Virus record (IMG/VR): IMGVR_UViG_3300006071_000030
Source: a virus
Strand: one strand, 5' to 3'
DNA: 39,019 nucleotides
This document shows, in pieces, positions 5,168 through 39,019 of the stretch (positions are counted from its first letter, which is position 1; every line of letters starts with the position of its first letter). The position numbers and the translations under genes are program-made. The notes under the pieces are model-generated. The model was not told the DNA's origin, did no database searches, and saw only the letters and a program-made list of their open reading frames with translations.

Positions 5168-8100
5168 TTAAGCTTGAGGTTCGTTCCAAGAGATACGACC
5201 CAAAAGCTGCACACCAACACCATTAAGGTTCTGGGCAACTAGAGTCAATGTATCTGGACCATCTGGGTAGATGTTCTTATCAGGTGTAGCGAGTGCTGCA
5301 ACAGTAGAAGTACCACCGTTGAGGACACTGTTACCAAGGTCGCGGACACCGGCAACGTTAACTTCCTGTGTGGTGTCTACAAAGAAACCACCGGTAACTT
5401 CACCAGCAGCCAAACCACTAGCAACCGTAACACCATTGGGTACAGAAGAGTAGTCAGCAATCTGGCTAAGCGATGAGTTCGGGCTGTTTGTACCAGCGAC
5501 GACGTTTGTCCACTGTGGCAATGTTCCACCATTGATAAGCTGTGGCACGCCATTCAAGTAAGCCTTGATAAGCACGTTACCGGCACCAACCCCCTGTGTA
5601 CCAGTAACCGTAACTGACACGTCAAGCGTCTGCAGCTGCAACTGAACTCGGTTAGCCAGTTCGTGTGATCCAAGGATAGAACTTGTTTGGCTGTTGTCAA
5701 CGCTAGGGGCAATACGAATCGACATCAGAGCCTTGGTCTGACCAGAAGCCAACGTAATTGGAGTAGTCTGACCATAGGTGAACAAAAGGTTGGCGTCAGG
5801 CGAGAAACCACCATCCATTGTTACTGCAGTACCCCAGTGGCTAAAGTATGGGCTGTGCGTAGGCATTGCCAACTCAACCGTAGTGGGTGCGGTAGCAGAG
5901 TATGAGAATGCAGTTCCTGCAAGTCCCATAGCCTGCACTGGAACCGTTGCGCTGGCGTTAGTCGATACAGAAGCATTGCTAAACGTAATGAAGTTACCGC
6001 TGATGGAAGCAACGTATGTGTTGTCGGGGAACAACGTCGGTGCAGTAACCTTAGAACCAATTGCAACACCGGTAATAGTTCCGCTACCAATTGGGCTACC
6101 AGACGTTAAAGAAAGCGTCAGGGAAGCAGGGGTAGCAATACCACGTGTCAAACCACCGAAGCTGCTAGCAGTTACAGTTGTGTAATTAACGTATTCAACA
6201 CCAGTCGTGGCGTTCTTGATCGCAAGAGTGCCTGATGCAGGGAATGCGCTATTGCCAGCTGGATTCAGCGTATTGTTAACATAGATTGTGGTGTCTGTTG
6301 CACCGATGCCAGATGTGGTAGTGGTAATTGGTGGGATCGTAGATGTTTCGTAACGACCCGGCAAGTTACCAGAGCGCATGTAGGCAGTGGTGTTGATGTT
6401 GTTGTTAGCCAGCTTGTGGCAGAACATGATGTTACCATCAGTAGTTCTCAGGCCCCAACGCACGAAACCAGCTCCGTACCACGAGTAGTCAAGGTACCAC
6501 ATCTGCATCTTGGTAAGGTCAAGCTTGTAACCGCTAGGTCCAGTTCCATCAAGTTTGTCGATGTTCCATTGCGACTGTGGCACACGGTTGTCGACAGTGG
6601 CTGTAACAGTCACGTAGTTGGCAGTAATACCACGGTAAGCAGGGCTAATGGTGATCTGCGTATCGCTAGCGATATCAGTAACACGGTAAGAGCTACCACG
6701 GATAACAATGTACTGACCAGGGGTCAGCTGCTTGCTAAAGATGGTTGGGAAATTGCCATCGGTTGCAGTAACCGTTGTGCTACCGTTTGTTACAGTTGCA
6801 CGACCAGCAACCTGCTTAATTGAGCTACGAAGAACAGCGTAAAGCTGCTGACCATCGTACTCGAAGAACATGCCATTTTCTTGGTTGAAAAGACCCATTC
6901 TCTGTACAGCACCGTACCAACCATTAACTGTGCAAATAAAGTTTGCAGGATAATCAGATGGTGAAGTATTGCCAAGAGTACCAGTAGCAGTAATAGTGAA
7001 CTGAGTGGCATTAAGAATGTTGGCAATAGGGTATGTGCCGTTGTAACCACTAGTAATTACACCAGCGATATTTACACTTGTACCAGGGGTAAGGTTGTGC
7101 TGTTCACGAGTTGTTACGGTGATCGTCGAACCAGGAGTTGTGCCAGTGGCAGAAATACCATCAACAGTGAATGCAGTGTTAAGGATCGTACCGGTGGCCA
7201 TTTCAAGACCCTTACCAGACTGGTAGTGGAAGTTACGACGGGTTTGACGAATAGCAGATTGGTGGTTGCTCAAGCTTTGTGGTCCGAACAGCACACCACC
7301 GTCAAATGGACGCTGAGCGAACAAAGATTGGTTGCGAGGAGTGATTGAACCACCGGTAGGAGTACCACCAGGTGCGCTCAATGCATAGTAGGTAAGACCG
7401 CTAGCACTGGTAATACCAGTTACATAGAAGTTACCATTCGCAGCAGATTGGCTAGTACCGCTAACGCTAATTTCATTACCAATGCTCAGGCCATGAGGAA
7501 CGGTTGTCGTTACAGTAATCAAGTTACTTGAGTTGGTAAACGTTGGTGTACCGCCGATAGCAGCACCGGTGTAGTACTGCTGCTGCCAGACCTGAGTCTT
7601 AAATGGGTCAAAGAAACCCGAAGTACCACTAGGAGTACCAAATGTGTTTACTGTCTTGGCAGAGTAAGTGAACGAGTTTGTGCCGCTTGTTTCTACGATG
7701 AAGTTACCGTTGGCTGGAGCGAAGAAAGCATCTTGCACAGAGAATGGTGTGCCTGTGGCAAGGCCGCCACCACTTGTAAGAACAGTCACTGTCTTGCTGT
7801 TGGCACTCATAGTCATACCAGTTACGGTAAGACCATTAGTAGCCAGCGAAATTGGTGGGTACATGTTATAACCAGCAGGGTGCCAGTTAGTTGTGCCGAG
7901 AGCTTCCCACTTAGAAGTCTGGTTACCATACTCAAAGTCGGTGTCAATCATCGACTGAGGTGTAGAGACGCGTTGCTTACCCACTGGGTCGTAAAGCTCT
8001 TCCACAGGAACTGTGCGTTGAGCATATTCATCAACTGTGATAGTGATCTTGTCGGTGGCAAGCATGCCAGATGTACCGCCGTTGAACACAACAGTAGTTA

Positions 8101-18389: not shown

Positions 18390-18481
18390 CGTGTTACTCC
18401 TTATACTGTTCCCTTAGGAACGCTGGACAGTAGGCAATATATGCCTAATACCTGTTATAAGATAGAGCATGTTTTAAATGG

Positions 18482-18562
18482 TCGATGGGGAGAGATTCGA
18501 ACTCCCGTACCCGAAGGATCTGGTTTACAGCCAGACGCGATTGGCCACTCCGCCACCCATCG
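18482..18562 (-). tRNA. tRNA-Tyr (GTA), long variable arm, no encoded CCA
   Basis: Folded by hand: acceptor CGATGGG/CCCATCG, D-arm GCGG/TCGC, anticodon stem TCTGG/CCAGA with loop CTGTAAA, a 12-nt variable arm, and T-arm GGGAG-TTCGAAT-CTCTC. Confidence 0.75.
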
Positions 18563-18567
18563 ATTTG

Positions 18568-18638
18568 CTGAGGGAGAAGGACTCGAACCTTCAACAAAAG
18601 CTCCAAAGGCTCCCGTGTTGCCATTACACCATCCCTCA
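18568..18638 (-). tRNA. tRNA-Gln (TTG)
   Basis: Acceptor TGAGGGA/TCCCTCA, T-arm GAAGG-TTCGAGT-CCTTC, anticodon loop CTTTGGA. The anticodon stem has two G-U pairs. Confidence 0.6.
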
Positions 18639-18660
18639 ATGTTTATTGCATGGCATGCAG

Positions 18661-18747
18661 CGGAATGAGTAGGATTCGAACCTACGGAGGCTTTGATACC
18701 TCGCCGGTTTAGCAAACCGGTGCTTTCGACCACTCAGCCATCATTCC
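18661..18747 (-). tRNA. tRNA-Ser (GCT), long variable arm
   Basis: Acceptor GGAATGA/TCATTCC, anticodon stem CCGGT/ACCGG with loop TTGCTAA, long variable arm, T-arm GTAGG-TTCGAAT-CCTAC. Confidence 0.75.
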
Positions 18748-18752
18748 TTATG

Positions 18753-18824
18753 CTCCCAGGGTAGGGATCGAACCTACGACCGAGCGATTAACAGTCGCTT
18801 GCTCTGCCGCTGAGCTACCTGGGA
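18753..18824 (-). tRNA. tRNA-Asn (GTT)
   Basis: Acceptor TCCCAGG/CCTGGGA, D-arm GCTC/GAGC, anticodon stem AGCGA/TCGCT with loop CTGTTAA, T-arm GTAGG-TTCGATC-CCTAC. Confidence 0.75.
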
Positions 18825-25007: not shown

Positions 25008-25009
25008 AG

Positions 25010-25083
25010 CGACCTTGATGGGACTCGAACCCACGACCCCCACCGTGACAGGGTGGTGCTCTAACCAACTGAGCTACAAGGCC
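25010..25083 (-). tRNA. tRNA-Asp (GTC)
   Basis: Acceptor GGCCTTG/CAAGGTC (one G-U pair), D-arm GCTC/GAGC, anticodon stem CCACC/GGTGG with loop CTGTCAC, T-arm GTGGG-TTCGAGT-CCCAT. Confidence 0.7.
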
Positions 25084-36937: not shown

Positions 36938-37603
36938 TTAGCAACCACCACGGCAAATCCATCCAGTACCGTATTCTTGACTTGGGTCCCAAACAATGTC
37001 TTGGGTGTTTCCACAGTTGTAGCAGTAGCGAGAATTGCCTGGGATGTGCCCATCCATAGGCTTATTTTCCCCCATTGAGTTATCGTTGGCGTAACGCTCA
37101 GCGAAAGAAGCACTCTTAGGCTTAAGTGGTGGCACATCGCGAACGTGCTTGTAGACTTGTGGGTCGTACTTAGTGTCTGGGTCTTGCATCATTTTCACTC
37201 TTGAATTAAGAGGAACGTTAGGATTTGTTACTTCTTTGCTAATGTTTGTCTGAGGAGCCTTGCTCTTTGTGCTTGTCTGCTCTGTGGGGAAATGCTTTTC
37301 CATAAGATCACTATAGTGTTCCACAAGGCTCTTTTGGTTAACGCCTGGTTGTGTGCGCTTCAGTACTTCTTGGTGCATCTCATTAATTTTGCCAACGCCT
37401 TGCTGGAACTTCCCAATGCTGTCCATAACGTCATTGTGGTTATTACGGACTTCATCAACCATTCTTGCATTAGGGACGTTAGGCTTGTTCTTTTCGTATT
37501 CATCACGCGTTTGGTATCTATTCTCAGCGATTCTAATCGCCGCCATTTTTGCATTGCCAAGTGAGTTCTGGTAGCTCTTTGACCAGTCGTTGAATTGTGC
37601 CAT
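36938..37603 (-). CDS. hypothetical protein (221 aa) with C-terminal zinc ribbon; first gene of the leftward gene block
   Basis: MAQFNDWSKSYQ... ; CYNCG...WICRGGC. A non-coding region lies upstream. Confidence 0.55.
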   Translation of the reverse strand: MAQFNDWSKSYQNSLGNAKMAAIRIAENRYQTRDEYEKNKPNVPNARMVDEVRNNHNDVMDSIGKFQQGVGKINEMHQEVLKRTQPGVNQKSLVEHYSDLMEKHFPTEQTSTKSKAPQTNISKEVTNPNVPLNSRVKMMQDPDTKYDPQVYKHVRDVPPLKPKSASFAERYANDNSMGENKPMDGHIPGNSRYCYNCGNTQDIVWDPSQEYGTGWICRGGC

Positions 37604-38156
37604 GGTGTAGCCCTTTGTAGATAGTAGAACGATTGCTATCCCCTATACCAAGAACTATATGTATTTACATTATTCTCTCTTTTTTTCTATCTACTTTAGT
37701 GCACCTAGTATTTCATACGTGGCCAAGGCCTCCGGCATTTTTAATTCTTACCAGTACGATCTCAACGCCTGCTCTATCGAATACCCCATAGGGCTGCCCG
37801 CCATTTTTTAAAGGCGTTTCTATACGCTCCCATTGGGACCCCTATTGGCGAGCCTTACAGAGCCTTTTAGGCCCCTCTCAAGGCACTCCTCTAAAACCCT
37901 TTAGTTCTGGAAATGGCAAAACCTACCATCCTATTTCACGCCTTGGATTGCGTGTTAGTTACACGCTAGCAAAAGATTATGAACTTCTTTGCGTCCTTGG
38001 GCACAATGTCCAAGTGAGGCTGAGAACTCATGGTCCTAGCAATCACCTGTATGTTGCTGAACTACAGCACCGTACAGCTGTGTGCGCAAACGTACTACTC
38101 AGTAGTGCGCGAACGTACGCAGCAACCCAACACCTATGCATTAGAAAGAGATTAAA

Positions 38157-38342
38157 ATGAAGCGTTTTCAGCTGATTTCCCTGCTCCTTGGTAGCTTTGC
38201 GTTCACGTTCGCAGTATCGTTCGTGAACACAATGATCTCGTGGTACACACCCATGGGGCAGGCACAGACCGTACTCACGGTCTCGTTGTCGTTCACCTTC
38301 GTGGTGTTCGTGGCTGCAGTCCTGTACACAGCCAAGAAGTAG
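38157..38342 (+). CDS. small two-TM membrane protein (61 aa)
   Basis: Two hydrophobic helices. AAAGAG 6 nt upstream of the ATG. Local GC is higher than the bulk of the window. Confidence 0.45.
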   Translation: MKRFQLISLLLGSFAFTFAVSFVNTMISWYTPMGQAQTVLTVSLSFTFVVFVAAVLYTAKK

Positions 38343-38424
38343 TACGCAATGCCGAAATCATCACGTCGGGAGATGTTGTGGTCGTCGTAGGGTGATGCCT
38401 ACGGCCTGATGATGGCAGTCAGCT

Positions 38425-38472
38425 AACTAAACCAGTCCTGAGGAGGACACTATGAAGGAAGTAACAACGATC
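38425..38472 (+). repeat. 48-bp direct repeat copy 1 (RBS + ATG + first 7 codons)
   Basis: aactaaaccagtcctgaggaggacactatgaaggaagtaacaacgatc, identical to 38873..38920. Confidence 0.9.
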
Positions 38473-38820
38473 GACGCTGCTAAGGCTTTGGTTGAGCACT
38501 ACGCTGCTGCGGCTGAGCTCATGACTGCTGAGGCTAAGGCTGAGTACGAGGCTGCTTTGGCTGCGTACGAGGCTGTTGAGGCTAAGTACGAGGCTAAGCA
38601 GGACGCTGCTTGGGCTAAGCGTGACGCTGCTAAGGCTGAGTACTACGCTGCTCAGGCTGAGTTCAAGGCTGCCGAGGCTGAGTTCGACGATGCTTGGGCT
38701 GAGTACCACGCTGCTTTGGCTAAGTACGACGCTGCTTTGTCTAAGCCTGAGGTCAAGGCTGCTTGGGCTAAGTTCTACGCTGCTATGGCTGAGCTCAACG
38801 CTGCTCAGGCTGAGCAGTAA
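38452..38820 (+). CDS. Ala-rich (about 40% Ala) helical repeat protein with periodic aromatic residues
   Basis: GAGGAGG Shine-Dalgarno 7 nt upstream. The sequence is built from degenerate GCT-GAG/GCT-AAG codon repeats. The N-terminus MKEVTTI is shared with the next gene. Confidence 0.6.
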   Translation: MKEVTTIDAAKALVEHYAAAAELMTAEAKAEYEAALAAYEAVEAKYEAKQDAAWAKRDAAKAEYYAAQAEFKAAEAEFDDAWAEYHAALAKYDAALSKPEVKAAWAKFYAAMAELNAAQAEQ

Positions 38821-38872
38821 CAGCTCGGTTCACAAGGGGTATGAGCTCCACCCCACCCAACGGGCTCAACCC

Positions 38873-38920
38873 AACTAAACCAGTCCTGAGGAGGACACTA
38901 TGAAGGAAGTAACAACGATC
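38873..38920 (+). repeat. 48-bp direct repeat copy 2
   Basis: Identical 48-mer. Flanking bases differ. Confidence 0.9.
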
Positions 38921-39019
38921 AGCGGTTCCGTCTACCTCATCAATGAAGATGAGCAGATGTGGTGCCGGAAGTCAACTGCCCCTGTGCGCAAGTACGATAA
39001 CGGGGAGTACGTCGACACC
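38900..39019 (+). CDS. hypothetical protein, partial (C-terminus beyond window)
   Basis: Same 48-nt leader, RBS and first 7 codons (MKEVTTI) as the preceding gene, then it diverges (SGSVYLINEDEQMWCRK...). Confidence 0.5.
   Translation, partial: MKEVTTISGSVYLINEDEQMWCRKSTAPVRKYDNGEYVDT

Follow-up and report, generated by a model that had tools for sequence, protein, structure and literature searches.

A duplicated 48-nucleotide start region in an uncultured phage is probably a portable translation-initiation module with a second role as homology for recombination

The virus record IMGVR_UViG_3300006071_000030, analyzed here as one stretch of 39,019 nucleotides (hereafter the window), carries two exact plus-strand copies of a 48-nucleotide sequence, AACTAAACCAGTCCTGAGGAGGACACTATGAAGGAAGTAACAACGATC, at positions 38425 to 38472 (copy 1) and 38873 to 38920 (copy 2). 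Comparison with related metagenome contigs leads us to conclude that this 48-mer is probably a portable module for initiating translation and, at the same time, provides homology for recombination within a ribozyme-punctuated, hyperplastic region of a phage genome. As we picture it, the 48-mer would be the initiation module (a hairpin in the 5′ untranslated region [UTR], a strong Shine–Dalgarno [SD] sequence, the ATG, and seven codons) of a multicopy, hypervariable family of Ala-rich proteins. It heads the gene for the family member Ala122, and recombination inside the shared first 21 coding bases would have placed it on the adjacent gene, which encodes a protein of 86 amino acids.

Each copy comprises a GGAGG SD sequence (38442–38446 in copy 1), a 5-nucleotide spacer, an ATG (38452 in copy 1 and 38900 in copy 2), and a total of seven codons specifying MKEVTTI, wherein codons 2 through 7 are AAG GAA GTA ACA ACG ATC. 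The original prediction, made from the letters of the window, had placed the two copies at exactly these positions, and their coordinates hold. The pair is also recovered as repeat family D4. No third copy was found in the window when as many as three mismatches were allowed, and none appeared in 100 shuffles, so that zero are expected by chance. BLASTP detects no similarity past MKEVTTI between the two proteins that the copies head, in agreement with the earlier statement that the same SD, ATG, and N terminus are supplied to two otherwise unrelated proteins. A small hairpin, GUCCU-GAGG-AGGAC (38435–38448), encloses the SD of copy 1 and is retained in most copies of the leader, with substitutions confined to the loop. 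We found no promoter-like site within or beside the 48-mer, the hairpin on its plus strand is not followed by a T-run, and the terminator-like calls made there lie on the minus strand only.

By using an exact-protein look-up, we recovered six independent contigs with this locus from Joint Genome Institute (JGI) and European Nucleotide Archive (ENA) data. Both 48-mers are present in five of these contigs (L001 and L003–L006), at the same spacing and with the same genes downstream. The earlier expectation that more copies might lie beyond the window was not borne out, as none occurs within about 4 kb past the window end in this lineage (L001 itself extends 3.3 kb farther than the window), and the genome holds only the two. 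Scans of IMG/VR with the 48-mer, a relaxed leader pattern, the trailer described below, and the 86-amino acid protein gave no match.

Copy 1 initiates the plus-strand gene for Ala122 (38452–38820), which encodes a 122-amino acid, acidic, heptad-repeat protein (MKEVTTI...AEQ) with a net charge of −10. This protein had been described as about 40% Ala and encoded by GCT-GAG/GCT-AAG hexamers. Its richness in Ala and its use of GCT (42 of 45 Ala codons) stand, but the measured Ala content is 36.9% and the true repeat unit is a 21-nucleotide heptad rather than a hexamer. These units form a degenerate tandem array (38533–38814, plus strand) encoding heptads of the form [Y/F]-x-A-A-x-A-[E/K], for which Tandem Repeats Finder reports a period of 21 with 3.0 and 9.8 copies and 71 to 80% matches, and which is marked also by repeat families D1 through D3. 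The aromatic residues do recur about every seventh position, as was noted at the outset, through the center of the protein (Y32, Y39, and Y46; Y64, F71, F78, Y85, and Y92). Open reading frames in alternative frames (38576–38878 on the plus strand and 38419–38709 on the minus strand) were rejected as by-products of the GCT-GAG repeat, because the Ala frame alone keeps the SD and ATG together with the AEQ stop in all paralogs.

The AlphaFold2 model of Ala122 is entirely helical (helices at residues 2–21, 26–96, and 99–121; predicted local distance difference test [pLDDT] score of 87.8), and a Foldseek search with it yielded only generic, nonsignificant coiled-coil matches (E ≥ 0.77). Type I antifreeze proteins, which likewise form Ala-rich helices, have an 11-residue periodicity and regularly spaced Thr residues. 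The question of whether Ala122 is antifreeze-like, raised in the original prediction, can be answered in the negative, since its repeat has a period of 7 rather than 11 and Thr is nearly confined to the N-terminal MKEVTT.

Across all loci, including 12 further metagenome loci that were added by a scan with a relaxed leader pattern, we found 15 distinct Ala-rich proteins of 30 to 182 amino acids, with no more than three members per genome. All start with MKE[V/A]T and most end in ...AEQ. Their Ala content is 33 to 38%, and 14 of the 15 are net negative (range −18 to +2). Hydrophobic residues co-occur with peaks at lags of 3, 4, 7, 10, 11, and 14, and Ala with a peak at lag 7; on the basis of this periodicity and the helical model, the family is predicted to form coiled coils. 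These numbers, together with at most three leaders per genome, largely uphold, for the phage population as a whole, the earlier proposal of paralogous cassettes with a fixed leader and N terminus in a fast-evolving accessory locus.

Searches of Pfam, PHROGs, and PDB sequences assigned no family to Ala122, to the 86-amino acid protein, or to their neighbors. An exhaustive HMMER search of 1.8 billion representative sequences with Ala122 gave five weak matches, mostly generic coiled coils, and no family. A word-indexed protein search returned no match, not even the query itself, from an index that fails on such composition (phmmer detects the paralogs). A literature search for Ala-rich heptad early proteins of phages produced nothing relevant. 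The mostly acidic, Ala-rich heptad proteins are a previously undescribed, unannotated, and fast-changing phage family. Loci that behave in this manner are the usual places of anti-defense and host-takeover genes, and from this context the family proteins are most likely early-expressed host-interaction or anti-defense effectors under diversifying pressure. Note that two of the exhaustive-search matches, P0004 and P0007 (see also L029 285–791), come from unrelated contigs and have very similar AAWAEY-type heptad arrays, which are preceded by an N-terminal domain and followed toward the C terminus by a CPNCPWDGKTIF motif. One of the two, P0004, starts with MKETTI. Both could share ancestry with the family or have converged on it.

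A predicted type II hammerhead ribozyme (38350–38424, plus strand), which is a full-length match to RF02276 at 31.5 bits, ends immediately 5′ of copy 1; the feature start given in the original prediction, 38413, falls within it. Stem II pairs GCC (38351–38353) with GGC (38414–38416) and is accompanied by GAA (38354–38356). Stem III occupies 38357 to 38382, C17 is nucleotide 38383, stem I occupies 38384 to 38405, the core CUGAUGA lies at 38406 to 38412, and the 3′ tail GUCA at 38418 to 38421. Cleavage is predicted to occur between 38383 and 38384. The window copy has the A15.1–U16.1 pair and an H17 nucleotide (A38357...U38382 and C38383), and two other copies from the lineage carry the rare U15.1–A16.1 swap, a variation that slows cleavage (Perreault et al. 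2011, PMC3088659). Loop I (UGAU) and the tail (GUCA) could form four pairs and are both invariant across copies, and every copy carries one additional U, located between A9 and stem II.

Further type II variants punctuate the plus-strand operon (L001 7323–7385 and 9190–9252; L008 7358–7432 and 8276–8338; L021 3392–3466). Among ten distinct copies, 96.7% of the paired cells are occupied by pairs, with six compensatory pairs, a value reached by none of 500 shuffles, and slid controls give 27 to 57%. Stem I is 100% paired, with covariation at four of its eight pairs, and the catalytic core is constant except at N7, which is U or C.

A second repeated element, the trailer (TR), marks the 3′ boundary of the cassette at 38836 to 38868 (plus strand). 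Its 33-nucleotide core, GGGGTATGAG[C/T]TCCACCCCACCCAACGGGCTCA, is invariant in seven gene contexts across L001 to L028. TR follows Ala-rich genes and also a 49-amino acid gene from outside the family, and it comes before either the leader or the gene for a 47-amino acid basic protein. Copy 2 of the 48-mer has TR, not a ribozyme, on its 5′ side, and its TR-to-leader junction recurs identically before an Ala121 gene in L022 and L020. TR has no match in Rfam and gives no thermodynamic signal on folding. We note that it could pair as a pseudoknot through GGGG/CCCC and GAGCUC/GGGCUC.

The edges of these elements coincide with the points at which related genomes part. Over 5.7 kb, L002 shares 99.93% identity with the window lineage (lineage A) and then diverges at the 5′ edge of copy 2, past which it has another ribosome-binding site and the gene for the 47-amino acid basic protein. 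In L022 and L020, TR plus leader is 98.8% identical to the region around window copy 2 but runs into the Ala121 gene; because these two loci continue into Ala121, the crossover that made the second gene of the window maps to where the 21 shared coding bases end, on their 3′ side. The 182-amino acid protein of L020 is a chimera of Ala122 and a 112-amino acid paralog, and the 30-amino acid form in L017 equals the 100-amino acid form in L019 deleted between two AELKAAWAKYDAAEA repeats. Because the Ala122 cassette (a 448-bp unit) lies between two 48-bp repeats that match perfectly, it can be lost or amplified.

A sister lineage (lineage B) was defined from contigs with homologs of the 86-amino acid protein (L007–L016) and includes L024 and L027 as well. 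The genes that it shares with the window lineage are only about 76 to 91% identical, and the gene order is permuted between the two. Lineage B has three copies of the leader, heading the 86-amino acid gene, Ala98, and Ala71; these genes share a near-identical leader plus ATGAAGGAAGTAACAAC at their start. The order is the 86-amino acid gene, a hammerhead, the Ala98 gene, the Ala71 gene, and the gene for a small membrane protein. Three lineages were found together in the single sample Ga0208744. These comparative breakpoints show the module, TR, and the hammerheads as short islands of identity at which co-occurring, related phages exchange, duplicate, fuse, and delete small gene cassettes.

A bolder version of this reading is that the start module, the ...AEQ-stop-TR end, and the ribozymes constitute a dedicated system by which co-infecting phages reshuffle and resize early coiled-coil effectors, amounting to a recombination-based "antigenic variation" that would serve to evade a host defense directed at these proteins or to match a variable host target. 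We give it a small but appreciable chance. Were it correct, exaptation would have turned the start module into a universal splice point, in frame and able to drive unrelated genes as well.

The nature of the constraint on the start region bears on what the module is. The sequence ATG AAG GAA GTA ACA is invariant in 16 distinct family genes despite differing upstream SD contexts, which fall into four types. The codons used there are otherwise avoided: Glu is GAA in 15 of 15 cases within codons 2 to 7 and GAG in 202 of 212 cases in the gene bodies; Val is GTA in 15 of 16 cases at the start and in 0 of 31 in the bodies; and the Thr codon ACA occurs 16 times at the start and never in the bodies. 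Among the start codons (2–7), 50% have A as the third base, versus 1% of those in the bodies. This pattern agrees with the well-established preference of initiation for an A-rich, weakly structured sequence around the start codon.

A functional N-terminal peptide tag offers another explanation, in which MKEVTT(I) would direct targeting, packaging, or processing and the nucleotide identity would be secondary. The capsid-targeting sequence of T4 internal proteins is a precedent, being a short conserved N terminus on unrelated, hypervariable small proteins encoded at a plastic locus, and the loci of these internal proteins are likewise hypervariable. The seven residues are indeed common to two unrelated proteins, and MKE[V/A]T is kept in all 15 family members. 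However, conservation in this genome runs 27 nucleotides into the 5′ UTR, the synonymous sites of codons 2 to 5 are invariant with codons that the gene bodies avoid, and the amino acid changes V4A, E3G, and T6M/V fall inside the supposed tag. Moreover, the genes lie on the arm opposite the structural genes and have no link to head genes. Because the synonymous sites at the start and the 5′ UTR are conserved, against the codon bias of the bodies, the constraint probably acts on RNA or DNA rather than on a peptide tag. The conservation thus points to a nucleic acid–level element, as judged from sequence comparison, and it tells against the fixed N-terminal tag of the original prediction, which we consider unlikely.

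The module might instead be an operator that is bound by a translational repressor (RegA-like) or by a small antisense RNA and so co-regulates the genes that carry it. The nucleotide invariance of the start region across divergent genes and the conservation, in most copies, of the small hairpin with the SD would suit such a role. However, we found neither a candidate regulator nor a complementary RNA; the only partial complement, at 37225 to 37256 (72%), lies inside a minus-strand gene and was judged to be a chance match; and the hairpin is missing from family members with quite different SD contexts. We consider an operator improbable.

It is also very doubtful that the 48-bp identity was left behind, as a neutral scar, by a rearrangement of very recent date and has no function other than that of an ordinary ribosome-binding site. 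A recent event is suggested by the perfect identity, which takes in the 5′ segment (AACTAAACC) that varies in other cases, and the near-identical genome L002 does not have copy 2. Nevertheless, a core of 15 to 17 nucleotides is invariant, against codon bias, in lineages that are about 76 to 91% identical elsewhere, and the sister lineage independently retains three copies. Last, there is virtually no chance that the duplication is an artefact of collapsed or chimeric reads. An assembly artefact had been named in the original prediction as a possible refutation, and it would be favored by the window stopping 99 nucleotides past copy 2 and by high strain microdiversity at the locus. However, separate JGI and ENA assemblies yielded five contigs in which both copies are present at identical spacing and are followed by the same genes.

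With a portable initiation module as the preferred reading, the module would equip each cistron, at the RNA level, with one and the same initiation region, which would be efficient, rich in A, and weakly structured. The Ala122 and 86-amino acid genes would lie on one RNA, whose 5′ end would be cut at 38383/38384 by the predicted upstream hammerhead and whose 3′ end would be cut at the next hammerhead, beyond the window (L001 7323–7385). Leader variants, which differ in the loop base, the SD–ATG spacing, and the upstream bases, sort by genome and not by gene, and in each lineage the leader of the 86-amino acid gene is of the type carried by the co-resident Ala gene.

Several observations weigh against this reading. 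The window hammerhead scores below the Rfam gathering threshold (31.5 bits versus 37; E of 0.0013–0.012), and its related copies, although every one is full-length, also remain under 37 (27.9–36.7 bits). The leader hairpin is thermodynamically ordinary (folding z of −0.73) and does not covary. The case for concerted evolution of the leaders draws on no more than two genomes in which several leaders are of the hairpin type. Moreover, it is only from counts (15 family members versus one outlier) that we infer the direction of transfer, in which the 86-amino acid gene captured the start module of the family.

That gene, the sole nonfamily gene bearing the module, encodes a protein that is not rich in Ala and is represented in the window by its 5′ part (MKEVTTISGSVYLINEDEQMWC...; 38900–39019, plus strand), which is truncated where the window stops; in L001, the complete gene spans 7058–7318. 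Only two clusters of homologs of its product were found among 5.8 billion proteins. Full-length versions score 21.6, 21.7, and 17.7 bits against Pfam Vault_4, under the cut-off of 22.9 and with 26 residues aligned, and a 40-amino acid fragment reaches a marginal 23.9 bits. The AlphaFold2 model of the protein is of low confidence (pLDDT 52).

The original prediction had described the region as richer in GC than the minus-strand genes and different in codon style, and had suggested that it might be a compositionally distinct segment of recent acquisition. The compositional difference is genuine: GC is 0.546 for 38157 to 39019 versus 0.454 for the minus arm (1–37603), and GC at third codon positions (GC3) is 0.71 to 0.82 in the neighboring plus-strand genes versus 0.42 in the minus-strand genes. 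However, the same style covers the whole plus arm and is common to the sister lineage. In L001, G/C-ending codons exceed 83% of two-fold codons in all plus-strand genes, and in L008 the GC3 of the plus-strand genes, 20 in total and spanning 10 kb, is 0.46 to 0.82 throughout, versus 0.27 to 0.45 in the minus arm. The share of CAA among Gln codons is 54% for the minus arm but 10% for the plus arm. Because the high-GC3 style spans the whole plus arm (at least 10 kb) in both lineages, the cassette is not a recently acquired islet, and the style looks like a property of the transcription unit or expression class. We also rejected classification of the cassette as a moron, because no promoter or plus-strand terminator consensus flanks 38425 to 38872 and the cassette lies within a same-strand operon behind a ribozyme.

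As a whole, the window represents phage DNA; it includes a portal gene, a gene for a large virion protein, and five tRNA genes on the minus strand. A tRNA cluster (18479–18824) comprises Tyr-GTA, Gln-TTG, Ser-GCT, and Asn-GTT, and a separate tRNA-Asp gene is located at 25009 to 25083; all five lie within the low-GC3 arm. Over 54 nucleotides, the tRNA-Asn gene shares 92.6% identity with one in Synechococcus phages. The portal protein is 39% identical to portals of mycobacteriophage myoviruses with genomes of about 155 kb, and near and distant blastn searches of GenBank phages revealed no relatives of the locus and no close relative of the window.

The first clear plus-strand gene past the strand switch (38157–38342; GC3 of 0.76) lies upstream of the ribozyme and encodes a hydrophobic, 61-amino acid predicted small membrane protein, which has no match in Pfam or PHROGs. 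Within the strand-switch intergenic region, a 56-nucleotide stretch at 37888 to 37943 (…CCCTTTAGTTCTGGAAATGGCAAAAC…; L008 6684–6739) is 89% conserved between the lineages amid poorly alignable surroundings and may be an early promoter, a regulatory element, or an origin element. Beyond the window, the 86-amino acid gene in L001 is followed by a 98-amino acid gene, a tRNA-like gene, genes of 298, 54, and 47 amino acids, and an HNH endonuclease gene. The last of these (L001 9448–9867, plus strand; GC3 of 0.41) is HNH_3 homing-endonuclease-like and closes the high-GC3 block of lineage A; it is missing from that position in L003 and L004.

The tRNA-like gene (L001 7724–7794, plus strand; about 700 nucleotides past the window end) has an ortholog at L008 9115–9185 and is conserved in both lineages. 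It scores 55 to 57 bits against the Rfam tRNA model, and ARAGORN reports a 6-nucleotide anticodon loop ("anticodon ta"). This gene may be a noncanonical tRNA or a processing signal for RNase P/Z in the operon. Additional tRNA-like minihelices consisting of a T-arm and an acceptor (L008 7005–7054 and L021 4500–4548, both plus strand) score 22 to 29 bits against mascRNA, for which the gathering threshold is 42.5, and sit just upstream of some cassettes. Folding of the tRNA-like pieces gave no thermodynamic signal. Every cassette may be preceded by an RNA-processing element, whether a hammerhead, TR, or a tRNA-like piece.

If our reading is correct, shuffling in hyperplastic regions can use initiation modules and self-cleaving ribozymes, beyond the promoter–terminator cassettes. 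Recombination within the first codons would give in-frame chimeras, and an unrelated gene would inherit a ready-made, tuned start. The newly defined Ala-rich family heads a plus-strand operon beside the strand switch in uncultured phages that are distantly related to actinobacteriophages. Furthermore, the ten covarying hammerheads before identical leaders would constitute a natural test set for the effect of cleavage on the stability and translation of downstream mRNA.

The system resembles several that are known. As with the T4 capsid-targeting sequence, a short conserved N terminus is common to unrelated small phage proteins, but conservation here is at the nucleotide level, includes the 5′ UTR, and has nothing tying it to head assembly. 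The hammerheads are like known type II representatives (PMC3088659, RF02276) in their CUGANGA...GAA core, capped stems I and III, and open stem II. They also resemble these in the occurrence of U15.1–A16.1 variants and in bracketing single genes or short blocks on the coding strand, in keeping with the report that several type II hammerheads flank single genes in phage and prophage DNA (PMC3088659). The pseudoknot between loop I and the 3′ tail that was described in the same report may form here too. Unlike the Rfam examples, these copies fall just under the threshold and have the extra U between A9 and stem II, and unlike those described before, they consistently precede a family initiation module; their cleavage is predicted only.

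The Ala-rich proteins, like "Alacoil"-type coils and Plasmodium MSP3 (PMC5209848), combine heptads and small Ala residues with one hydrophobic or aromatic seam, and, as in the case of MSP3, they are products of a multigene family in which the ends are conserved and the repeat core varies. They differ in showing no sequence homology to these proteins, in being phage cytoplasmic proteins of 30 to 182 amino acids, and in the unusual aromatic residue (Y/F/W) at the "a" position.

The closest described phenomenon is the modular shuffling that T4-type phages undergo through their "mobile regulatory cassettes," the early promoter–stem-loop (PeSL) elements (Arbiol et al. 2010, PMC2839356; Comeau et al. 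2014, PMC4122927). In both cases, short conserved repeats flank small ORFan genes in a hyperplastic region; here, copies of the leader, TR, and the hammerhead alternate with genes of 30 to 182 amino acids that belong to no known family. In both, the breakpoints of indels and replacements between close relatives fall at the repeats (here in L002, L022, L020, and lineage B), and direct repeats around a gene permit its loss or transfer. However, we rejected membership among PeSL elements, because no sigma-70 promoter or terminator stem-loop is present in or next to the 48-mer. The partner repeats are hammerhead ribozymes and an unclassified trailer rather than terminators, and the phage has its relatives among large actinobacteriophages (39% identity of the portal) rather than near T4. 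Whereas a PeSL consists of an early sigma-70 promoter and a terminator stem-loop, the repeat described here unites a ribosome-binding site with the opening seven codons, and because it includes these codons, recombination at this locus also swaps N termini and makes in-frame chimeras.

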